A stretch of 64,000 nucleotides of DNA, taken from the NCBI GenBank assembly GCA_000091205.1, contig AP006496.2, one strand, 5' to 3'. Every line of letters starts with the position of its first letter. Position 1 is the first letter of the stretch. The translations under genes and the position numbers were made by a program. The notes under the pieces are model-generated. The model ran no database searches. It was not told the origin of the DNA and was given only the letters and a program-made list of their open reading frames with translations. Below are positions 15,154 through 49,125 of this stretch, one piece after another. Origin of the DNA: Cyanidioschyzon merolae. Lineage: Eukaryota.

Positions 15154-15940
15154 CTGTGACTGCATCGTTTTCGACACCCTGATCCTCATTAGACCGGTCT
15201 CTGCTCACTCTCGCAGTCCTTTGACAAAAGTCGCCGGACGTTGTTGGCAGTGTTTGCGTCCCGATTTCAATGTGTTCGGCTATTGTCGACATAATCCACA
15301 TACAGGCGAACGTTGCAAGCTACGCCTCGCTTGCCATTTTCATCTTCGATGCGTAGAGCATCGGTGCACAGGGCGCAGCGATGATTCCTAACGACGATCA
15401 ACTGCTCCCGTTCACCCATCACAAATTCCTCTTCCCGTTCCATGTCTTCTGGAGCATGAACGCTTGTTTCTTCGCTCGGCGCATGCCGCTGACGCCTACG
15501 CAGGGTGCACCTCCGACGCCCATACCTTCGTTTCCGCGCCCGGCGCCGTACCCTACGATTCCAGGCCTCGTCTGGGCAATCCCTCGGGCGGGGACGCTGT
15601 CCGCTAGATGCACAGGCGCACGCTTCTCCACTCGATACGTAATTCGTGGAACGGGGTGTTGTCTGTGGAGAAACACGTGCCACAAGGCGAATCGACGCTG
15701 GGGAACAAGGCGCGGAATTGCGATCTGTCTACGCTCGCCTCGTGCAAGGCGCAGTCGCACGCTGAAACGGAAGCGATCACTGTGATGACTCAACTGCGAA
15801 TCAATGATCAGTCTGATGAAGTTGCTGTGGAATTCTGCTTTGCGAGATGCGTTGACTAGAAGGCGATTTGTCTTTTGAACGGAATCGATAATGTGCTGGG
15901 AAAATCCCAATCAATTTTCGGAATGAGCTTATGAACAGGC
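15154..15940. repeat. Dispersed repeat R, copy 2
   Basis: See copy 1. It is in direct orientation, and the two copies bracket LETM1. Confidence 0.95.
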
Positions 15941-29474: not shown

Positions 29475-29705
29475 AGATCGAAAACGTGAAGCGTGCGAGA
29501 TTCGAGCTCGCCATACGTAACAAAGGAGCAGCATGGAGGCTTGAACGCCTATATTGGATAATGATATCGGTGATGTTGCGAACTCTGGTTCGGGACGTCG
29601 TGATTCATCTTGATTTCGGTGTCGCAAAGCATACCAGTAGCAGAGCGCTGGGAAAGCCTCCGAAATCACGCCCGAGAATCCTAAAACCACGTTTGAATCT
29701 GTAAG
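29475..29705 (+). repeat. Diverged element E, copy 3
   Basis: Aligns with E1 and E2. The plus frame reads DVVIHLDFGVAKHTSSR, the copy closest to the copia-type protease motif (LDSGASxHxT). Confidence 0.65.
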
Positions 29706-29977
29706 TGCTCATTGCTGCGTTGGGAGTGTCGAGACAGTGCATCGAAAGCAAGTTCAAAAAACTATTCTCAATCCAGGAGCAAAGCGAGCAGTTTAATGCT
29801 CTATTTTCATGTCAATCGGGTGCAGCGCTCACGCAGCAGGAGCATTACGATACCCGGCGCATCGATGCCGTTGTGAAGGAGAGAAGAACCTTGCACAAAC
29901 TTGGATGGCGTATGCGCATCCAACAATTCATGAGCTCCTTCGCTCCCGCATGCCGTAAACTGTTGCCGTCGACGGGT

Positions 29978-30184
29978 ATGCCCGGTGTCGGCTGGCGAGA
30001 GTACGTGATCCTCTACGGTGCTGCGTTCAGTTCGCTTCTTGCGGGAGCTTCTCTTGTGCATAACTGGTTGCGCCCAGACTTGACCCTGCCGAACCTGGCG
30101 GCAACAGTGACCCGAGACGCTGCTGGAGCCGTCAAGCGGACGCGGGCCCAGGAACCTCGGGCTGACACAAACGTGACGCCGTGA
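29978..30184 (+). CDS. Brawnin/UQCC6-like single-pass mitochondrial microprotein (68 aa)
   Basis: MPGVGWREYVILYGAAFSSLLAGASLVHNWLRPDLTLPNL aligns with my recollection of human UQCC6/C12orf73 (MPAGVPMSTYLKMFAASLLAMCAGAEVVHRYYRPDLTIPEIP). The track ORF begins at GTG 29705. Alternative upstream ATGs lie at 29912 and 29930. Confidence 0.6.
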   Translation: MPGVGWREYVILYGAAFSSLLAGASLVHNWLRPDLTLPNLAATVTRDAAGAVKRTRAQEPRADTNVTP

Positions 30185-33100
30185 GGTGCGTCTCCCAGCG
30201 ACAGCGACCGGCGTGAGGGATTCAAGCTGTCACCAGGTCGTGTGCGAAAACAAGTTCTCGAAACAAGCGGAGGTCTAGCGTTCGGTTTTGGGCGCGGAAA
30301 CTATGTGTTTCGGCATGCGCCCAACTGTATTCAGGACTAGCGAAGGACGAAACATTAGAATCGTTCATGAATCGCCGAGGTGAATCGCGTTCGATGAACG
30401 TGGAGAGTGGTCTGGACTTTGCGGACTGCTGAACCGTATCATACTCGTGCTTTGGTACCAGCCGGACTCCAATGCATGCTCTCTTGGCCACTGGTTTTCT
30501 ATCAGAAATATTCTTCGTTTCAGTACCATACCCCCGCTGGGCACGAAACGATATCCCGGAACGGACTTTCGACATAGAGCCGTTGGACGATATAAACCAC
30601 GAGATATTTCCGAACGTTGACTGAAGCGTTCAAGTCTCTGTTCAGTACGCGCTTCCGCGCATTGTCGCTGGTGGAATCACACCGCAGCAATGCGCTCATC
30701 TTCCATTACCTCGCCATCTGACACTCGGTTAACGTATCGTACAGCATCTCGTAGAACTGTCTCTGTTTCACGCTCTTCTTGTCTACCGGTTTCAGCGTGC
30801 ATGTGTCGAGATGACGCGTATGTCTCGTCCTGAACTGATTCGCGAGCATCGTACGGAATCGATTCCTGCGTTCGTTGCACGCTGCCGTCGAGAGAGCAGG
30901 ACTACAGCCCTTGCTCTGGAAAGCGAGCCCAGTGTCATCGGATACCCGAAGAACGACGCGACTTGTCGACCGTTTCCATTCTCAACGCATCCAACAAGTT
31001 GGCGAATGCATGGTTCTTGCTTCCGTAGAATAGAAACGACTGGCGACCTCAGCGCGCGGTCTGTTGTACCGTGTGCCAACCATCGATCGCATGAGCCGCT
31101 TGGACGCTGCTGTGCACTCAGCATGAAGTGTACAAAGCGTCCTGCTCTGCTCGATACGGTGCAGAGGGTGTGGTGACGGGTCCTGACGCAATCCATCCAT
31201 TTGCTGGTGTGCATTCTGATGTCTATGATGCCCGACGTGCGCTTATACCGAGCACTGGAAAAGTTTCGCAGATGCATTCACTTCCGATTGGGTCGTTGTC
31301 TCCGTCGTCTCGACTGACTGACACATCGACGGGCGTGACGTCCCTCATTCGGACGTCGACGACGACCAACAAATCTTTCTCTTGACCTGCCTTGGACGGT
31401 TGAAAATGAGTCTCATTGCGCGACTCTGAACCAGGTTTTGCAAAGTGCATGCAGATGGATGTTGCGGCGTCGTCCGTGCTCGAGACAGTTTTTCTCCACG
31501 CTCTACTGGTAAACGAGAATCCTTGAACGAGCTTCGCCAATGCGCCACGTCGCGTTGGTCGAATGCTGGTTGCTTGCACACAGAAACCAGCTATTGATCG
31601 CTGAAGAGGTCGTACATTACCGTGCACAATTGTCTTTGGTGATAGCATATGCCTTGGAATGACTGATCGCGATCATGACGTATAGACGCTAGAGGAGACA
31701 CCGATGCTGGGATTCGGGGAGCGAGTCTGCATTGGCCTGGACGGCACTGTTCCCGAAAACGCAGTAATGCGAGATGTATGCAAGGCAGGCATCACGTTTC
31801 CGTCACAATTTGGATATGACGTGGGTTGGTCCAAGGCCCAGAGAGCAACACGACAACCTTGGACGATCTGGAAGGACGCCTGCTCGTGTTGCGATATCTT
31901 TTGCGAGTGCGCCAGCGCTTCGAACGCGTATGTCACCAGCTCAACATATGCCTCCATCGACACCGCGAGTATCCCTTCTGTCAGTGTCCAATGATCCCGG
32001 CCAGTGAGATGAGTCTACTAGGGGTAAAAAGCCCACAGGGCGTGCCCCGTGAAGCGCTCCACATTGGCTCGCATATGCTTTTGGTTTTCAGAATGCTTCG
32101 ATACTTTGTCGCATCTATCCTGCGGTTAGGACGGTCACAGACGTGGCAACGCGACGCGACAAGGCATTCTGGCACGTGTGTGTTTTTTTTTGCGATCCCT
32201 GCTCCGACGATCACGCCATTCTGCATCCTCTGCCCGGGGTATATGTTGTGTCGTCGTACGAAGGTTTGATCGAAGAATTCCACAGGAGCGAGGACAACTG
32301 GCACCTATGCGTACGGATCTCGTGAGGAAACTTCCTCGACGAGGTGCGTCAAGACGTGCAAAGCGAGGTAAACCCTCGTCAACGGACAAACCGAGCGATC
32401 TCCAATAGCGTCCGGCATATCTTTTTGGAAGATTTGTCCTGGCGCTACGTCCTCGTAGAAAAGCTTTTACAACGGTTTCAGGTTGATCTCCCGGCTCGGA
32501 AAGTTTCTCGTTTCGGTACCTTCTCGTCCTCTTTTCGGGAGGATTTCTCCTTTTCATCCGATGACTCCTTCTCCATTTCGTTTCTTTCGCGATGTGGCAT
32601 GGATGCGATTGTTGTACTCCATACCTGGTTTCTGTCGGGATTCAGATGCGCTGGATTACGGGTGATACCAGGATCCGCATTCTCTATGTATGTATCTACT
32701 ATTCCTCAGATAACTTTTGGTGAACTTCTCCGTCGCGAGCTTCTCTGCAGGCCGACAAAGGCATTGCCACCACCCGATGCGCACGAACTGTAGCGTCACA
32801 GCGCAGTTGAGGGCCGGTCAAGGTAGAGAACTACCTGCCAAGCAGCAATTCATCGAAAACCTTTCGTTTCACGGATGCAAACGACTCGTCTAGCGTTTCA
32901 TGGCCGTAACTACGGTATCAAACAGCAGAGAAGACGCTTTCGTCTGGATTGAATCAGGGGAACACGACGACGCGAAGAGCAACAGAACACCAATCATAGC
33001 TGCGTACTCCTTTATTGCTTTGGTTGATCCAAAGCGAAGTTCTCTAATAGGTGGACAGAGGAATGCGGGAAGAGGAAGCTACGAAGAGTGCCAACACGAG

Positions 33101-34823
33101 GGTTAAGATGCTGAAGGATCCTGACCGTTTGGCGATGTTTGGGCGACCAGACCAGGGCGTCGCCGTATGGCTGACGTTGTCGTCATACTCGCTTCTCGCT
33201 TCTATGCGAGCACCAGCTTAGTCCTCTCTGCGCACTCGCATACAGATCTACCATTTCTCCCAAATAAAGCCTCATGAATGTAGGTGAACACCTGGCCCTC
33301 CAGTGCCAAGCGTTCGCATTTCACCAGGATATCGATCGTGCGTTATTCAACGCGTGACGCGTCTAGCGTAGAAATCTGTGTTGTTCTCGGTCCGATAGGG
33401 TGTCTTCATCACTGTCCGCAATAGCGGTCCGGATGCTTCACATCCTGTGGCTTCTTCTATAGTGCTTCCTGGGGAAATCAAGGCATGGATTGGATTGACG
33501 AGAACATAGTCGTTCAGATAGGGTTCGCCAGGTTCTGTCGTGGACGCAAAATGTTAATATTAGGGATCAGGAGAGCGGCGGCTCACCTAGCCGATGAACT
33601 ATGAACGACTGATTGATGAATGAGCGACCGTTTGAGGCATGCTAGCAGCGACAAAGTCAAGTCTTTATGGCACCTTCCTTCAATCTGCAGGTTACATTCT
33701 TTTTGTTGAATAGATACGAAAAAAATAAACAAAAATAAAAACAGGTGTGTGAGTACGGGTGTTCCAGAACCCACTGCTCAGAGTCTAACGTCTCCGGATT
33801 TCGCAGCAGAGCGCATGAGGTAGCGTGCACCCTCGGGCCCATTTCCTCGGTAACGATCATGACCTGAATAGGCGGCAAGCGTCGCAGAGCTTCGGTGCGC
33901 AGTGGCAGTGGGTCGCAAGCTCTGCGTTTACAGAGCATGCATCCAGCTTCAAAACGTTGAATGCCGGTCAGTTTTTCTGGATTTTCACCACGTCGCTCTC
34001 GCTTAACATAGACTGGAGGGAAGGAATTCGTCGACGTGGCGTACCGCGTGCACGACATAGCGTCAGCGGGGCTTTGCATTGCGCACTGCAGAGCCGGCTC
34101 TTCGGGCACCTATTTCGCTTCCACGAACTGCGTCATTCGTGCGACCGGGTTGGCGTCGAGGGCGCGCTCGCTTTCGAAACCCCATGGTTTCGAGCCGCTC
34201 GCGAGAAGCGACAGCTCGGTGAGCACACTCTAAAAGACCGCTGTTGCAACGAGACGGGTCGGTTTCCTTTGAAAACTTCACGGCACTGGGTCGTCAACAC
34301 GCGTACAGCCGGGGCTCTGGGTTACGGCACTGAGGTAAAACCTGTGACTTGCATATGGTCGACGTATTTGATCCCTGATCCAGATCCATAAAACTGTGTA
34401 ATCCAGGACGTAGTACTCCCGTTCCAGAAGAGCCCCGCAACTCCACTTTCAGAGAGCGATGCAACCAAACACCGCGCCGCTGCATACCGTTAACCTAGCA
34501 GGCTCCTTCGTTAACGAGGCACCAAAAAGGCAAAGACGAGCACCGCCACAGAGTCCCAGAGACTCTATGCAATATCTCTTGCCTCCAAGCGCAAGGCTAG
34601 GGGGGCTTGAGAACGCCCGAACAACGGCGTGCAGGGTCCATTGCCCCAGACAAACACGTGCCCGCAAAATCCGGTCCCAATAATAGACACAACGTGATAG
34701 CGTCAGTGCAATGTACAATGTATGGAGGCTTGAGTCCGCCAGTCGGAAACCGCATACATTGCCAGAAGAGCCTACGTGTTTCCGTGAGCAGTTGGTGCAC
34801 CGCCTGCGATACGAGGCGCGCCG

Positions 34824-35264
34824 ATGCCCACTCGAAGCGCGCGCGCGCGCGCAGGCACGCCGCCTCGTCTGATAAGAGACTCTTCGTCGTCTGCCGCGGC
34901 TTTGTTGAGTGTTATTCTCCTGTACGCAGCTCTTGCTCCAGTGGGTACAGGCGCGACGCATACCATGTCAGGTTCGCTATGGAAACAACTGCTTACGCGC
35001 GGTAGCTCCTGGATAGAACCTTCAGCGTCTCCCGAGGCGTGGGAAACGACAGCTGAACTTCGCAGGAAGCTTCTGTACACACACCTAAACGCTTTGCCAG
35101 CTCGTTGGCAGGCCGCACAGAACGAGTTCAGGGCGCTGCTGGACAAGATGCGCGCGAAGCAGGTCACCGTCGAAGAGGCCGGGTGGTTCGGCGTGCGCTG
35201 TGTTGAGCTGTATGCATTCTATTGTTTGGGGGTCGTGATCGGGGCGCGCTCCCTCCAGCCGTGA
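34824..35264 (+). CDS. ATP synthase subunit g-like protein (mitochondrial Fo)
   Basis: The C-terminus KQVTVEEAGWFGVRCVELYAFYCLGVVIGARSLQP resembles the subunit-g signature (LTVKEA..NG....EV..WFYVGEIIGKR). The conserved part starts at internal ATG 34965 (MSGSLWKQ..., 99 aa). The Arg-rich extension from ATG 34824 may or may not be translated. Confidence 0.5.
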   Translation: MPTRSARARAGTPPRLIRDSSSSAAALLSVILLYAALAPVGTGATHTMSGSLWKQLLTRGSSWIEPSASPEAWETTAELRRKLLYTHLNALPARWQAAQNEFRALLDKMRAKQVTVEEAGWFGVRCVELYAFYCLGVVIGARSLQP

Positions 35265-36480: not shown

Positions 36481-36593
36481 GCATTGGCATTGGCATTGGC
36501 ATTGGCATTGGCATTGGCATTGACATTGGCATTGGCATTGGCATTGGCATTGGCATTGACATTGGCATTGGCATTGGCATTGGCATTGACATT
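36481..36593. repeat. Hexanucleotide array (GCATTG)n with periodic ACATTG variants (~19 units)
   Basis: Read directly: 7 GCATTG, ACATTG, 5 GCATTG, ACATTG, 4 GCATTG, ACATTC. It lies ~170 bp upstream of the MPO1-like ATG. All three frames give dipeptide repeats (CQ, AN, GI), so it is probably non-coding. Confidence 0.95.
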
Positions 36594-36729: not shown

Positions 36730-37100
36730 CCGCTGGAACAGATACTGCACGGAGACAGAACGGCTTTGCTATACCGCTGAGGGTATCGGGCTGAGGCGTG
36801 GTTGGCGCGATACCGGGTCGGAGTACACCGTAACTCTGGGATCGCTCGAGCAGAGACTGCACGGAGACAGAACGGCTTTGCTATACCGCTGAGGGTATCG
36901 GGCTGAGGCGTGGTTGCCGCGATACCGGGTCGGAGTACATCGTAACTCTGGGATCGCTCGAGCAGATACTGCACGGAGACAGAACGGCTTTGCTATACCG
37001 CTGAGGGTATCGGGCTGAGGCGTGGTTGCCGCGATACCGGGTCGGATTACACCGTAACTCTGGAATCCTGCAAGCTGTGCAGAGAGACGTACTGCGGTCG
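36730..37100. repeat. Tandem repeat, ~112-bp unit, ~3.3 copies
   Basis: The unit actgcacggagacagaacggctttgctataccgctgagggtatcgggctgaggcgtggttgccgcgataccgggtcggagtaca(c/t)cgtaactctgggatcgctcgagcaga recurs at 36743, 36856 and 36968. A degenerate fourth start follows. Confidence 0.9.
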
Positions 37101-39030
37101 GTAGCACGTGGCGGCTTCGGTTTGTGTGCCTTGCTGAATGTTAGGTTCAGGATCTTTTGCAACGAGGTGGCGCATCTCGAGGTACGATCGATGCGCACCT
37201 GGTCCTGTCAATGTCACAAACCGCGAATCAGACTTTCGTCAAAGGTTAACAGTTCGCTGACGTGACCCTCAGGGTACCGGGCGTATAGTGTGCGCTCGCG
37301 GAGAGCGCCGCTGAGGATGCTGCGTTGATATACAGCAACTTCACCACGTCCAGGAGAACGTCGGCAGGGAGTCGAGATATTCGATGCGTCTGCTGCAACG
37401 TATGGCACATGACCCTGGATGAACAGCCGTGCATGTGCATCGCATGACTTCTGTGGGGTTTCTTGCGAGATACGTCGATCAGTTGGTCAGAGTCCGGGGC
37501 CACAGCTGTTTCTTCAGATCGATCACAAGTAAAGAATGAGTTCGGTAATACGTCGCCGCTCCGAGGGCGCGATATGCGCATGCCCTGAGTCACGGGGTAT
37601 GGCGGATCGGCGAGAACGTCAGTGCTGCTCGCTTGTACCCTACCAAGCGGAACAAATCGACACAAACGAGCTATTTTGTTGTCATGATACCTCGAAGATC
37701 CGGCAGACGGACCACGAACCTGAAGTGCAGTGTTTCTGCATATGCAACGCAAGAGCGCCAGCGCCGGGTTCCGTGTCCGGAAGATGTGCGCAGCCTCGTT
37801 GAACCCGAACCCAGGTTGTTTTGAGAGCGAACCCCAAGTTGATTTGCAGCAGCCGCAACGATCGTCGCATGCTTCTTGTTCGTTTCTGACCGACGTGACT
37901 GCATCCAGCGCGCGGAGATGAGCAAGTATTCAGGCCTGCCGAGCGTTCGAGGAAAATCCAGAGTCCTAAGCTGCATGGACAAAGCAACTGCATCTGCCAC
38001 GTAGCCACGGCACTGTAGCGTCAACAATTGCGATGCACCGGAGGCTTCTCCGCATGCAATCGCAGGGATCGTGAGCCTTGTTCGCTGCTGTATAGCAGGA
38101 ACTTGATTCAACTCGCAGTCGTGCAGCATCCATCGCATCTCCAAATGCTTTGTTCGCGAGACTTGCGGATATAACGCTCGCTGCGCAGCGTTCTTGAATA
38201 TGATCGCTGACGGCTTCATATGCGGAGCAAAAACCTGCTAGGCACATCTGGGCAAAATTACCGTGACGACGGCATCTCGGCGCCTCGAGCTCCGGATCCG
38301 ACGTACGCCGCTACGGTGCACATGCACGAGATCTCGCTCGCGAAAGTAGTGTGATCCTTTTTTCGTATCATTTGCCACCTAAAATAGCAGTTTGTGATCA
38401 GTCTCGGAGGTTCGGGTCAGATATGAGAGCACGTACACGCTCCGAATAGCACCGTTTCATTGCCTTGGGGATTCCAGCGTCCAGTGCTTCGCCTGGCGTG
38501 CGTCATTGCTGTGACGCTCGAACGCCCAGCGCACCGGCAGACGCACATCGCACCAGTGTGCCGAGCATTCGCGCTGATTCCGGAGACAGATTTATAAACG
38601 GAGCCTTTAAATCGAGTCAACAATCCCCAGTCCTAACTTTCATTGAACAGGCTCCATGCTGTACCTGGTTGTTCATGCAGTGTAAGCGCGTGCTCGAGCG
38701 AACGAGTCATGAAAAGGTCTGGCAGTCGAGCGCATGCCCGTACGCAACAGATGGTGTGCATATGACTCGATGCAGAGCGCACTCGAGCGCATGTCGAGCT
38801 GTGCCCAGCACGCTGTCTATCCCTGGATTCGCGAACGGTACGCTTGAATTACGATCCGTTCAGCTGCAAAAGGCACATACCTCGGACATCCGGTTCTCGA
38901 TAGAGATATCGCAAGCTGGAGATGGTTTGCATGGTGCCGGAGAATGAAATCCGTTCTTATCGCACAGGCATACACCGATGCGCCGTTTCTGCAACATAGC
39001 GTCATACCAGAAAGGCAAAAGCTTCGTGCA

Positions 39031-39250
39031 CAGAGCAGACAAACGACACTGATTGCGCTGCATCGTTGCTAAGAGTGATGCTATGCTATGCGGCGGTATA
39101 CGCCATGACCTGAGCATCTCGTGCGTTTTCTGAGGTATGCACCAAGCAAACAGACGGCACTGTTTGCGCTGCATCCTTACTAAGAGTGATGCTATGCTAT
39201 GCGGCGGTATACGCCATGACCTGATCATCTCTTGTCTCTGCCTCTGAGGC
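39031..39250. repeat. Tandem duplication, ~111-bp unit, 2 copies
   Basis: The string cactg(a/t)ttgcgctgcatc(g/c)tt(g/a)ctaagagtgatgctatgctatgcggcggtatacgccatgacctga(g/t)catctc occurs twice (taagagtg at 39070 and 39181). The minus-strand translation shows the duplicated peptide RSWRIPPHSIASLL. Confidence 0.9.
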
Positions 39251-42443: not shown

Positions 42444-44167
42444 GTGGCAGGTGTATAGAGTCTAGGATATGGTTTAAGGCGCAATATGGATGACGAAATG
42501 TAACGGATTGTCGCGGCATGAAGAGAAAATTTTAGATGTACGAGTATTCATGAAGCCAAGACTGTACTCATCTGACGAGCCGCTGCAAGCGACACAGTAC
42601 AAGTAACGCTGATCATTTTGACGATAGTGGACATTTTTCTTGTTGTGCATTGTGTACAACCTGGCGCATAAGCAGCGCGCGCTCTCCAGCAGTGGCTCTG
42701 CACCGCGACCGCAACTACCTCGTGTATTACACAATTCCCGCAACAGAGTACGCTCACCATCGACATGATCCGTCTCTAGTTGCGCGCTTACGGCGTTACA
42801 AGTTCCAGCTGGCGGCTATTCTGACACTATCGGGAAGTGCTCTGGTTGCAGACGGAGAACCGGAACCAGCGCGACGAAAGAGCTGCAGTCGAACCGCAAT
42901 TCTCTGATGCAAAGGTTCACAGAATGCTTCGTTCGTGATGCAGCGTGGAGAGAAGCAGTGCGCTCCCTCCATTGCCCCAAGTTCCTTTTCGTGAACTGAC
43001 CCGCAGGCACTACGGGCATCTTCCTGATACCGCCAGTCCGTTTATTGTTGCTGCTCGGGCAACTTGAAGTGCTAGACGGTTTCTGCTAGAAAACCCGCCA
43101 AAAAGCTTGCTATACGGCGTTTACATATGAATCTGCCTAGTAACCCTAGTCGTCCGGCGTTCTCGCTGGCCGAGGAGAACGTTGTCACTTCGGAATGCAG
43201 ATGCTGGCGCGACATCCTCGGCGCGATGCATTGCTGCCCAGAGAGTTCCACAATCGAATTTGTCTGTTTCGTGTCTGCCACAGCATGTGGAATACAAATG
43301 TTTGCCGAACAGAAGATTGAAAGTTCTCCAACAGGTCCGGTCGCTGCAGTGTGCAACGCCTGCGGAGGCGCTCCCGCGTTCGAGGTTATTTATTCAGAGG
43401 GTTTCAGGCACTCACGGTTTAAAAGCATGAACCAGACCCGATCGCACAACGGCTCGTACGATAGCTGTCGCTGTGTCGTCTTCGATACGCCGTGGCGAGG
43501 CACTGGCAAAGCTACCTCTCCATCAGTCCCTGGTGTGGCGCTGAGCTCGTGGCCCCAGGCTCTGAAGGTCTGGGGGCCCTTGGCTTCGCTGCAAGCGCGA
43601 GTTTTCCGTAAACAATGTTCGTAAAACTCTTCCAAAGCCTCACACAGACCACGATTCGATTCGTGCACGCCCATACCGTCAGTGCACCCGGCGTCAGGCG
43701 TGTCGTAAAGGTAACACTGGAGCCCGCTCGTTGCCCTGTTTGGAGGACGCTTGTGTGCTGTGTTGCAACTTGCTCGCCGAGCCACAGTCGTTCGCTAAAC
43801 GCACCAATTACACCATGTTAATCTCAAGTCCGAGTAGAGCACTGTTCGAAACGTCCTCTTTATGCCAGAGTCGAGAATGGCTCTTATTCGCAAACGGTCT
43901 GAAAGAAATAATGCGGCGGGTGTGCGGCGTCGCCCGTGTTCATCGAATATCCTGCATCGAGTTGGTGCTGCCAGGAGGATATTGTCGTGAATATCGATCA
44001 ACATTCATCCAAGACGCATGTACCTCCGGAGGGAAATATGGAGAGTAGTGGTTCGAACTTGAATCTACAGAGCGGTATCATGGATGCTCACGCTGAAACC
44101 GATAACCGTCACAGAATCAGGGCTCCCTGCTTTATGTCAATATTCTTCGACACTACACTGGCGACGG

Positions 44168-46203: not shown

Positions 46204-49125
46204 TCACGAGGAGAACGCAGCTCCGCCAATCTGATCCCCGGTTCGAAGGACCGTCCCTGGCGATGCAATGTCGCCATTCAGCATAGGTACACCAGCGACA
46301 TCACCCAAGGTGGTGCCGCGAGGAAGTCGGAGCAACTTGCCCGAACTCTTATCGAATACGACGACATGCTGTTCCAGTTCAACGATTTGATGATAGAGTA
46401 CGCGAAAGTATTCACTGGTTGTTCCCAACGAAGCTGTGACGGTATCATCGAGAATAACATCCGCTCGACGCGACTCGGAATGCGTCAGTGTTTCCGAGGC
46501 GAGCGTCTCGCCTGAGGGCGGCTGCGTTGCCGGTAACGCTGCGACACGAGCGGGTGTATCCGATGGACCCGCTGCCGTTGTTGCTGCCGTCGGTGTGCTT
46601 ACGGCACCCGAGGCATCCGCCAGTGAGGCTACAGCAGCATCCGAGTCCGCTGCGACGTTGGATTCAAATTCGAACTCACCAACAGAAGGAGCACAGGGCG
46701 TATTGGCTAACGCCGCAGCATGCGCGATAGCGTTCCACGCAACAGCTTTCTCCCGTTCGCTCATGGCAGACGGCGAGACTGTGGTATTCGCAAAGCCCCG
46801 ATCCGTGAACAGATTCAGATTCTGCTTGTAGAGCCAGTGCGCGGCCCTGCCGTACTCCGCCAGCCGATGCATTCGCTCCGAACGCACCTGAACCTCAACC
46901 GGGAAGCCGTCGATAACTACCGTGGTATGCAGACTCTGATACCCGTTCTCCTTGGGCCAACGTATGAAATCGCGTCGCCTTTCGCGCACACTTGGCCAGA
47001 GTCGCTCGATGATGGCCATGACGGCGTCGCATGCCTCCAGCTCGCTGCTCTGATGAACCGGTCGCACAACAACCCGCAACGCCATCAGATCCAGAATGCT
47101 GTCGATGCCGCTCCCGAGACGAATCATCTTCCGGTACGTCGAGTAGAGACTCTTCACACGACCTCTGATGCGCCACGACCAAATGTAACTGTGCAACTGA
47201 GGCTCCAGACTGAGCGCATTTTCGATCGCTTGGCGAGCGTACTCGAGGATATCGGCACCTGCATCAAAGCGCAGTGCAACTTGCCGTCGCAGCGCCTCAC
47301 TCTGTTTTGGAAACAACAGCAAAAACGCCAGCTCCTCCATTTCGCATTGGAGGTAGTAGATGCCGAGCTGATTTGCGAGCGGAGCTACCACTTCCAGCGT
47401 CAAGAGAGCCAATCGCTGGGCAGTCGCATGCGTCATTGCGTCGAGCCGCTGCCTAGCGGGCGCGAGACTCGCCCGCTGGTCATCAGCGCCATCCGTATGG
47501 GATCGCGTCTCGCAAGACGCCTCTCGTGGTGTCAAGAGTCCGGGTGATACGCACGTGGGTGCTTGTTCCGCGGTCTCCTGCATCGAATTCAGTGAGCGAT
47601 CAGCAGGCGTATGCGAAACTGCAGGAGCACCAGAGGCATATGCCCCGGACGCCGTCGACGTACCCCTCACGACAGACGTCGCCACCGACTCGTCCATTGA
47701 CGACGCTGCCTCGCAGCTTCTTTGTGGTGCATTTCCCTCAGCTGCGCACGTATCTGGCGACGATGTTGCAGCGTCCATATCATCCATGAGGCCGAATGCT
47801 TCGCTGTACACGCGCAACTCGTGCAGCGTCCCTGCAAAAAAGAGCGCCAACGCGCGCCAGTCTTTGGCGACACCGATAAGCAGCTGCCGCAGACCTGCGG
47901 GATTCGAATCCATACTCGTCGCGTAGATAATGCCACGTATCGCCCTCTCCTGAATCAGAATATCTGCAACCGACCGGCCGAACTCGCTGGCGATCTCTCG
48001 CGTAGCCAGTGGTGTGTCCAGCAGAGCAGCTGCCAGCACAGCCTCGAGGTCCATCTGCAAGTCGATGACTGTATTCAGAACAGCACGACAGCGAGCGAAG
48101 CTGCGGTGTTTGCGCTCCTCGTGTATGGCGACACCCCAGGGTGTAGTCGACACAGCCGCTATGCGCCGTGCCGCCCTGTCGCTTGTACTTGGCGCGCTAG
48201 CTGCGTCCGGCGACAGGCGTTCGCGTTCCCCTCGCGCGCTTGTGCGCAAGTTCATGTCTGGTGGTGATGGTGGTGCATTCGCTGGGTCTGCCGTACTGCC
48301 TGCATCAGCATCTGGCGGTTGTCGAGCAGGCGAGTGCTGCATCGTAGCGGAACGCTGTAGCGAACGTTCCAGAGCAATGCGCACGAGGGATGAACCGATG
48401 GGTCCCAGGTACGCACAGCGAAGCTCGACATCTTCAATGAAGCGCTGCAAATCCTGTGTGGAGGATGGCCAGCCCGGGCCTTCCGCAACCTCACTGCATC
48501 TTCGCTGCTTTTCCAGGTTCTGGAGCGCCCGGCTAACCTGCGATGAAACCTGAATAAAATCTGAGCTGGAGACGTCTTTCGAGACTCGCTCTGGTGCCCG
48601 CCTGTGCTCGTTACGTCGCTGGCTCAGGGCTCCTGATTCGCGAGCCGCACCAAAGCACTCATACGTTCCATGCCTTGCGGGAGTGGTCGCTAGTCCCTGG
48701 CGGCGGCTGCGGTGCAGAAAAAGGCGCACGCCGACAGGTTTCCCAGTCGCTGACGGAGGCCGCTCCGGAACATCTTGCTGTTCACTGCGGGTGTTTTCAT
48801 CACCCGTGGCCACCTGAGCATCACCAGTCTTGTGTCGCACGTTCCAGACACACTTTGGTGCAGCAGAAGCGCCTTCCTCGCCATAGAACGGAGTTCGCTC
48901 AGGAAGCAGCCCCTGTTCGACCGGATCGATGCCCAGACGAAGAGCGCAGCGCCGCCCTTCGAAGCGGCCGCTACAAAACACCCTCCGTACAGGCGGAACG
49001 CGTAGGAGTGCTCTGTTTGCCGCACATAGTGCCGCCGCGCTCCCAACGAAGCCGTGAACCCGCTCTATTCGCACAGGCTGCAGACTCGGCTCAACGAAGC
49101 AGCTCGATGAGCGCCCAGTTGACAT
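46204..49125 (-). CDS. RSH: RelA/SpoT homologue (RSH): (p)ppGpp synthetase with degenerate HD domain and C-terminal TGS-like domain
   Basis: 973-aa ORF with ATG at 49125. The synthetase core reads LDLMALRVVVRP...RRDFIRWPKENGYQSLHTTVVIDGFPVEVQVRSERMHRLAEYGRAAHWLYK. The HD-domain scaffold is recognisable (DLEAVLAAALLDTPLATREIASEFGRSVADIL, VVAPLANQLGIYYLQCEMEELAFLLLFP). The C-terminus HVVVFDKSSGKLLRLPRGTTLGDVAG...VLRTGDQI is TGS-like. Confidence 0.85.
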   Translation of the reverse strand: MSTGRSSSCFVEPSLQPVRIERVHGFVGSAAALCAANRALLRVPPVRRVFCSGRFEGRRCALRLGIDPVEQGLLPERTPFYGEEGASAAPKCVWNVRHKTGDAQVATGDENTRSEQQDVPERPPSATGKPVGVRLFLHRSRRQGLATTPARHGTYECFGAARESGALSQRRNEHRRAPERVSKDVSSSDFIQVSSQVSRALQNLEKQRRCSEVAEGPGWPSSTQDLQRFIEDVELRCAYLGPIGSSLVRIALERSLQRSATMQHSPARQPPDADAGSTADPANAPPSPPDMNLRTSARGERERLSPDAASAPSTSDRAARRIAAVSTTPWGVAIHEERKHRSFARCRAVLNTVIDLQMDLEAVLAAALLDTPLATREIASEFGRSVADILIQERAIRGIIYATSMDSNPAGLRQLLIGVAKDWRALALFFAGTLHELRVYSEAFGLMDDMDAATSSPDTCAAEGNAPQRSCEAASSMDESVATSVVRGTSTASGAYASGAPAVSHTPADRSLNSMQETAEQAPTCVSPGLLTPREASCETRSHTDGADDQRASLAPARQRLDAMTHATAQRLALLTLEVVAPLANQLGIYYLQCEMEELAFLLLFPKQSEALRRQVALRFDAGADILEYARQAIENALSLEPQLHSYIWSWRIRGRVKSLYSTYRKMIRLGSGIDSILDLMALRVVVRPVHQSSELEACDAVMAIIERLWPSVRERRRDFIRWPKENGYQSLHTTVVIDGFPVEVQVRSERMHRLAEYGRAAHWLYKQNLNLFTDRGFANTTVSPSAMSEREKAVAWNAIAHAAALANTPCAPSVGEFEFESNVAADSDAAVASLADASGAVSTPTAATTAAGPSDTPARVAALPATQPPSGETLASETLTHSESRRADVILDDTVTASLGTTSEYFRVLYHQIVELEQHVVVFDKSSGKLLRLPRGTTLGDVAGVPMLNGDIASPGTVLRTGDQIGGAAFSS

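Follow-up and report, generated by a model that had tools for sequence, protein, structure and literature searches.

A 68-residue microprotein of the DUF4516/UQCC6 (BRAWNIN) family in the red alga Cyanidioschyzon merolae and its best-supported start codon

The stretch of Cyanidioschyzon merolae DNA analyzed here (64,000 nucleotides, hereafter the window) carries on its plus strand a short open reading frame at 29978-30184, which runs from an ATG at 29978-29980 to a TGA at 30182-30184 and translates into a 68-aa peptide, MPGVGWREYVILYGAAFSSLLAGASLVHNWLRPDLTLPNLAATVTRDAAGAVKRTRAQEPRADTNVTP. We read it as a real, intron-less DUF4516 gene that starts at ATG 29978 and encodes a probable inner-membrane factor with a role early in complex III (cytochrome b) assembly, and we give this reading as a whole a probability of about 80%. 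What the analysis shows is that the gene belongs to the family, starts at this codon, is under purifying selection and is syntenic with its counterpart in the sister genus Cyanidiococcus, and that its product has a single predicted N-terminal hydrophobic helix followed by the invariant motif H-x4-PDL-x2-P.

Results

Locus and host

The window contains long intron-less eukaryotic genes, among them UTP20, LETM1, an ATR-type kinase, a RelA/SpoT homologue, PFK2/FBPase2 and an ADP/ATP carrier. Four of its ORFs are exact matches to proteins of C. merolae strain 10D (BAM81200, BAM81207, BAM81208 and BAM81209), and the host is therefore a cyanidiophycean red alga, in line with the non-animal origin that had been proposed for the peptide. 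Because the host is a eukaryote, a scan of the window for bacterial promoters and terminators was set aside. Scans for tRNAs and Rfam families gave no match in the window. The RelA/SpoT homologue (46204-49125, minus strand) is 973 aa long with HD_4 and RelA_SpoT domains, and corresponds to BAM81207 in 10D, "similar to GTP pyrophosphokinase". It is the plastid-lineage stringent-response enzyme that is expected in an alga.

According to the ORF list, the 68-aa ORF is the C-terminal part of a 159-aa ORF that starts with GTG (29705..30184). Two further ATGs are found in frame upstream of 29978, at 29912 and 29930, and two are out of frame, at 29905 (a 17-codon uORF ending with TAA at 29956-29958) and at 29950 (Met-Pro-stop).

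Membership in the BRAWNIN family

Judged by its sequence, the peptide encoded at 29978-30184 is a clear relative of BRAWNIN/UQCC6, with a similarity far beyond chance. The Pfam profile PF14990 (DUF4516) matches it with 51.6 bits (E=7.3e-14), compared to a gathering cut-off of 27 bits, and residues 3-40 fall on profile positions 4-41 of 46. Human UQCC6 matches the same profile with 79.3 bits, which identifies PF14990 as the BRAWNIN family. An exact look-up of the human query (71 aa) identified it as [quoted passage not shown], also listed as "Protein BRAWNIN", and the vertebrate sequence on which the original prediction relied is thus real. When the algal peptide was compared directly with human UQCC6 by BLASTP, 17 of 41 residues were identical (41%) in an alignment that begins at residue 1 in both proteins (E=1e-11).

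An exhaustive phmmer search of 1.84 billion representatives returned about 20 short proteins, of 54-116 aa, that share this block, and a profile made from the peptide and these short relatives retrieves hundreds of vertebrate UQCC6/BRAWNIN entries at E values around 1e-17, all of which carry PF14990. One human sequence was included in this profile, while the pairwise BLASTP comparison with the human protein is independent of it. Similarity at profile level is thus present both with PF14990 and with the family profile, and the proposal of a Brawnin/UQCC6 homologue is borne out by Pfam, BLASTP and profile search alike. Within the window, the 68-aa ORF is the only one of 1566 six-frame stop-to-stop segments that matches the family profile; the next best segment has E=1.8.

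Long phmmer matches (1000-4000 aa) were rejected as low-complexity noise made up of many short matching stretches, and a word-indexed search for homologues, queried with only the 68-aa peptide in a tool that is insensitive to short queries, returned nothing. One database cluster pairs a 671-aa bacterial penicillin-binding protein with a 54-aa DUF4516 protein; the two sequences are unrelated, and the pairing is a bookkeeping oddity.

Two family alignments (A1 and A2), spanning vertebrate, algal and stramenopile members, show that G23, H28, P33, D34 and L35 are invariant and that A22 and P38 are nearly so (P38 is at least 90% conserved), and all of these residues are present in the algal peptide. 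The resulting family signature, G23...H28...P33-D34-L35...P38 (GASLVHNWLRPDLTLP; 30044..30091, plus strand), lies at and just past the C-terminal end of the predicted helix. With 68 aa, the peptide is within the microprotein size of the family (about 55-100 aa), and its conserved domain is located at the extreme N-terminus.

Predicted structure of the peptide

With the family alignment as input, AlphaFold2 predicts one helix spanning residues 6-30, with a mean pLDDT of 97 for residues 11-20 and 90 for residues 21-30. The maximum Kyte-Doolittle hydropathy over 19 residues is 1.70 at residues 9-27, compared to 1.47 at residues 10-28 in human UQCC6. The suggested check for transmembrane segments thus yields a single predicted N-terminal transmembrane helix (WREYVILYGAAFSSLLAGASLVHNW; 29993..30067, plus strand), whereas the charge distribution of the peptide gives no topology call. 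The helix is followed by a PDLTLP turn and then by a tail that AlphaFold2 models with low confidence (pLDDT 47-62). This variable C-terminal tail (residues 39-68; 30092..30181, plus strand) does not align between C. merolae and Cyanidiococcus, and both its length and its composition vary across the family. When PDB sequences were searched with the peptide or the family profile, no solved structure of a family member turned up; the only match, to "YYRPDLTKP" in ribosomal L28e (E=0.9), was dismissed as noise.

Conservation between Cyanidioschyzon and Cyanidiococcus

The closest named relative of the peptide is KAK4531583.1 from Cyanidiococcus yangmingshanensis, a 67-aa "hypothetical protein" with 64% identity over residues 2-43 (phmmer). 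A second annotation of the same gene gives a 122-aa protein, KAF6002814.1. The order ATR kinase (minus strand), DUF4516 (plus), Mpo1-like (minus) and RelA/SpoT (minus) is common to both genera, while the spacing differs: the distance to ATR is 0.66 kb in Cyanidiococcus versus 2.4 kb in C. merolae, and the distance to the next conserved gene is approximately 1.1 kb versus 4.7 kb.

When the syntenic intervals were compared by tblastx, conservation begins exactly at ATG 29978 (MPGVGWREY... in C. merolae and MVAVGWRRL... in Cyanidiococcus) and continues for 38 codons with 74% identity. This stretch is the sole conserved block between the ATR gene and an ORF resembling ATP synthase subunit g at approximately 34.95-35.27 kb. 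The Nei-Gojobori dN/dS between the two genera is 0.13-0.21 over the first 38-43 codons, at a dS of about 1.4-1.6 that is saturated. Third codon positions are the least conserved (20/38, versus 28/38 and 31/38 for the other two). Taken together, the conservation from ATG 29978 onward, the low dN/dS and the codon pattern argue for a translated and constrained ORF that starts at 29978. The Cyanidiococcus orthologue thus has the same start and the same ATR-RelA/SpoT neighborhood as the C. merolae gene, whereas its tail has diverged.

A separate block at 43378-43674 aligns with 15488-15784 of the Cyanidiococcus sequence (locus L004) with 52% identity over 99 aa (tblastx) in the opposite orientation. 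At sequence level, this suggests a small inversion between the genera inside an otherwise syntenic ATR-RSH interval.

Population variation

Variation was assessed in 16 environmental contigs with about 99% identity to the window. Lemonade Creek, Yellowstone, is described as home to a population resembling C. merolae 10D (PMC11662350), and we infer that the contigs derive from that study. The 207-nt ORF contains one variable site among the 16 contigs, at 30046, where GGA to GGC leaves Gly23 unchanged, compared to 1.1-3.1% variable sites in the flanks. By itself, this deficit is marginal, with one variant observed versus approximately 4.5 expected (Poisson P of about 0.06).

Downstream of the ORF, the stretch from 30185 to 34950 (approximately 4.7 kb) has no counterpart in Cyanidiococcus and is the most polymorphic, with 2.6-3.1% variable sites versus approximately 1.3% in the ATR coding sequence. 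Within it, a T/C polymorphism at 30222 removes a stop codon and extends a minus-strand ORF from 117 to 147 aa.

These comparisons also bear on whether the reading frame could be a chance ORF in non-coding DNA that happens to resemble BRAWNIN, an explanation that we consider highly improbable. The ORF is indeed short and apparently missing from the reference proteome, and the region around it is crowded with spurious ORFs in all frames of the ORF list. However, a chance ORF would be hard to reconcile with a Pfam E value of 7e-14 and a unique match among the six-frame segments, with a syntenic orthologue that evolves at low dN/dS even though dS is saturated, or with the presence of all invariant residues and a sole population variant that is synonymous. 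Cross-genus conservation at codon level has, as far as sequence comparison goes, effectively refuted this explanation already.

The start codon

ATG 29978 is the best-supported start of the gene on the sequence evidence, and the in-frame GTG/ATG "extension" (29705..29977, plus strand) is probably non-coding leader or intergenic DNA. The 120 nt upstream of ATG 29978 have 22% ungapped identity to Cyanidiococcus and give no tblastx match. In the extended frame, a population variant at 29856 is non-synonymous and replaces R with L, and in one strain the N-terminus of the extension is frameshifted.

It is unlikely, in our assessment, that the same gene instead uses the upstream ATG at 29912 or 29930 and makes a 90- or 84-aa precursor, in which the extension MRIQQFMSSFAPACRKLLPSTG would be a mitochondrial presequence. 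The 22-residue extension does resemble a presequence, as it is rich in Ser/Thr and has three basic and zero acidic residues, and N-terminal extensions of 15-65 residues occur in some non-animal members of the family, for example in Albugo (P0021, P0009 and P0016). In addition, one short environmental contig begins at 29872 and would include both ATGs. However, the conservation with Cyanidiococcus that sets in exactly at the 29978 Met, with unalignable sequence before it, argues against a longer protein, as does the newer Cyanidiococcus annotation, which is likewise the short 67-aa form. The algal N-terminus "MPGVGW" also lines up with vertebrate "MPAGVSW" at residue 1, and human UQCC6 does not need a cleavable extension. 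Only ATG 29978 has a purine (G) at -3, while both 29912 and 29930 have pyrimidines there. Most of the short contigs begin or break at 29928-29963, at or downstream of the two ATGs, and on longer transcripts the out-of-frame ATG at 29905 would precede both of them.

Annotation status

The cluster of the peptide at 90% identity holds forms of 68, 73, 84, 103, 157 and 159 aa, all from JGI/IMG, ENA or Logan assemblies, and it has no NCBI, UniRef or EukProt member. Other proteins of the window do have C. merolae 10D accessions and EukProt ids, and the gene therefore looks unannotated in the 10D reference proteome. Exact look-up of several neighbors (the LETM1, ATP-synthase-g-like, Mpo1-like and 210-aa ORFs) returned no 10D record, and this reading therefore draws on the membership of the 90% cluster. 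The Cyanidiococcus orthologue is annotated, whereas its C. merolae 10D counterpart apparently is not. Most metagenome callers chose the 159-aa GTG form. The original prediction, according to which the ORF is hidden in a GTG-extended frame and would be mis-started by ORF callers or missed, agrees with both observations: the 159-aa forms come from prokaryote-style callers in metagenomes, and the peptide is apparently absent from the 10D reference proteome.

Another small ORF in the window (34824-35264, plus strand) has a weak signal for ATP synthase subunit g (PF04718); over 105 aa, it is 83% identical to a Cyanidiococcus gene of 99 aa. No record matches its 146-aa translation exactly, and metagenome callers give forms of 180-189 aa. 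For this second small mitochondrial protein, it may be worth checking the start and possibly also the reference annotation.

Transcript hints

The region at approximately 29.9-31.8 kb of the window is represented by eight short contigs (1.2-2.2 kb) that stem from different samples. Five of the eight start at, or switch to unrelated sequence at, 29949, 29960, 29961, 29962 or 29963; two of the others start at 29928/29929 and one at 29872. Mutually unrelated 5' flanks are found in three contigs, L001 (1-428), L002 (1-248) and L003 (1-136), in which the flank gives way to window sequence at 29962, 29949 and 29960, respectively, and two more end at 29961 and 29963. One of the unrelated flanks corresponds to the 3' end of a coding sequence resembling an S1 domain. 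Since the design of the environmental study includes poly-A and RiboMinus metatranscriptomes in addition to metagenomes (PMC11662350), the short contigs are probably transcript assemblies with end-joined chimeras. No poly(A) tails were found in them. A 21-kb contig (L005) leaves the window sequence at 30559 (L005 position 10855), 5 nt before an RPS25 ORF, and then continues with Knl1 and actin genes. Both this departure and the flank junctions look like end-joined chimeras in transcript assemblies, or alternatively real structural variants.

The cluster of contig ends and chimeric junctions at 29949..29963 (no strand assigned) lies 15-29 nt upstream of ATG 29978. We infer that it marks a putative transcript boundary, in which case the first usable AUG would be ATG 29978. 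The sharp transcript end and the fast-evolving, lineage-specific run of approximately 1.6 kb may reflect real biology and not an assembly artefact, and the covered stretch after the small ORF may represent either a long 3' UTR or a non-coding transcript specific to the lineage. A search of the C. merolae ribosome-profiling literature found nothing usable.

Because three contigs differ in their 5' flanks, 29960-31800 was also considered as a repeat or mobile element. This was rejected, as eight longer contigs are colinear through the junction and the window holds no second copy. Tandem repeats do occur elsewhere in the window, in the intergenic DNA around the Mpo1-like gene and the 210-aa ORF: 19 copies of GCATTG at 36481-36593, three copies of a 112-bp unit at 36731-37067 (96% matches), and 1.8 copies of a 111-bp unit at 39027-39231. 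For one environmental contig, alignment to the 112-bp array is possible in several registers.

Discussion

The proposed function of the algal peptide draws on what is known of its animal relatives. [quoted passage not shown] Zebrafish knockouts lose assembled complex III (PMC7066179), and fly sloth1/2 mutants have complex III defects that are rescued by the human genes (PMC9681215). The assembly of BRAWNIN, SMIM4 and C16ORF91 has been termed the COMB complex and is required for cytochrome b insertion (reviewed in PMC12455275). By homology, the C. merolae peptide would insert into the inner mitochondrial membrane as a single-pass protein via residues 6-30, and its variable tail would face the intermembrane space as in human. 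There, it would join an early cytochrome b assembly intermediate, in which UQCC1/Cbp3- and UQCC2/Cbp6-type factors act on new, mitochondrially encoded cytochrome b, and would thereby promote assembly of respiratory complex III.

The likeness to vertebrate UQCC6 is confined to the N-terminal part of the protein. The algal peptide has PF14990, the size class and the Met-Pro start in common with human UQCC6/BRAWNIN/C12orf73 (71 aa) and its vertebrate orthologues, and the position of the helix and the signature AGA-x-VH-x4-PDLT-x-P are shared as well. In contrast, the C-terminal halves are unrelated, and the conserved PPKPGELKTELLGLK segment in the vertebrate tail is not found in the alga. The family is entirely absent from yeast (PMC9681215, PMC7066179, PMC8719881), which shows that it is dispensable in some lineages.

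A second difference concerns the partner protein. SMIM4/UQCC5/Sloth1 is a distant paralogue of UQCC6/Sloth2 and is sometimes encoded on the same transcript. Vertebrate UQCC6 works with this paralogue, and Drosophila Sloth2 (CG42308) is bicistronic with Sloth1, whereas the algal window has neither a bicistronic arrangement nor an adjacent paralogue. No second DUF4516-like or SMIM4-like ORF was detected in any frame of the 64 kb, with an unverified sequence as the SMIM4 query. Sloth2/C12orf73 homologues were reported by Bosch et al. (2022, eLife) in a choanoflagellate, in Plasmodium (PF3D7_0709800) and in Arabidopsis (AT5G57080 and AT4G26055), and an ancient single ancestor ORF was proposed (PMC9681215). 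The same authors did not find a Sloth1-type protein in plants or Plasmodium (PMC9681215), and a paralogous partner is therefore not family-defining outside animals and choanoflagellates. By published description and not by alignment, C. merolae resembles plants and Plasmodium as another lineage that seemingly has only the Sloth2-like type. As no SMIM4-like partner is found in the window, the two-peptide mechanism of animals cannot be assumed to carry over unchanged, and the alga may use a single protein of ancestral type in place of the SMIM4-UQCC6 pair.

We would go further only tentatively. [quoted passage not shown] If it is true, C. merolae, with its tiny genome, single mitochondrion and working genetics, would be a clean test system for the ancestral mechanism.

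It is also conceivable, but quite improbable, that the peptide is a true DUF4516 protein with another role in red algae than complex III assembly, for example in inner-membrane biogenesis or regulation, and that the animal function is derived. DUF4516 function has been tested in vertebrates and Drosophila only, the tails are unrelated between lineages, and the reported absence of SMIM4/Sloth1 from plants and Plasmodium, together with the result for the window, leaves room for such a change of role. On the other hand, the helix and the H-x4-PDLT-x-P motif are alike in algae and animals and under strong constraint, and to our knowledge all respiring mitochondria have cytochrome b, the client. 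The rescue of fly mutants by human orthologues further points to functional conservation over large distances (PMC9681215). We therefore favor a role in complex III assembly for the algal protein as well.

The depth of the family in eukaryotes is already established. In the original BRAWNIN paper, the peptide was described as conserved in vertebrates and absent from yeast and nematodes (PMC7066179), and the expectation that an algal homologue would extend the family deep into eukaryotes did not hold up, as the Plasmodium and Arabidopsis homologues have been published since 2022 (PMC9681215) and algal and stramenopile DUF4516 proteins are on record. Proteins with PF14990 in public databases include those of Cyanidiococcus (red alga), Klebsormidium (streptophyte alga), Albugo (oomycete), Tribonema (xanthophyte), Chlorochromonas (chrysophyte) and an MMETSP protist. 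The family's known phylogenetic range is thus unchanged and no new mechanism is revealed; what is new here is the orthologue in a model red alga, the evolutionary evidence for it, and the corrected start.

For C. merolae, a widely used model alga, the result supplies a gene that the reference annotation apparently lacks, which is a useful annotation fix and not a discovery. It also shows that prokaryote-style callers mis-start this gene as a 159-aa GTG ORF in hot-spring metagenomes. For the family, the synteny and dN/dS provide an independent data point from Archaeplastida for the published view that Sloth2/UQCC6 predates animals. Finally, our results offer a genetically tractable organism for asking which task a UQCC6-type protein performs when it has no SMIM4 partner.
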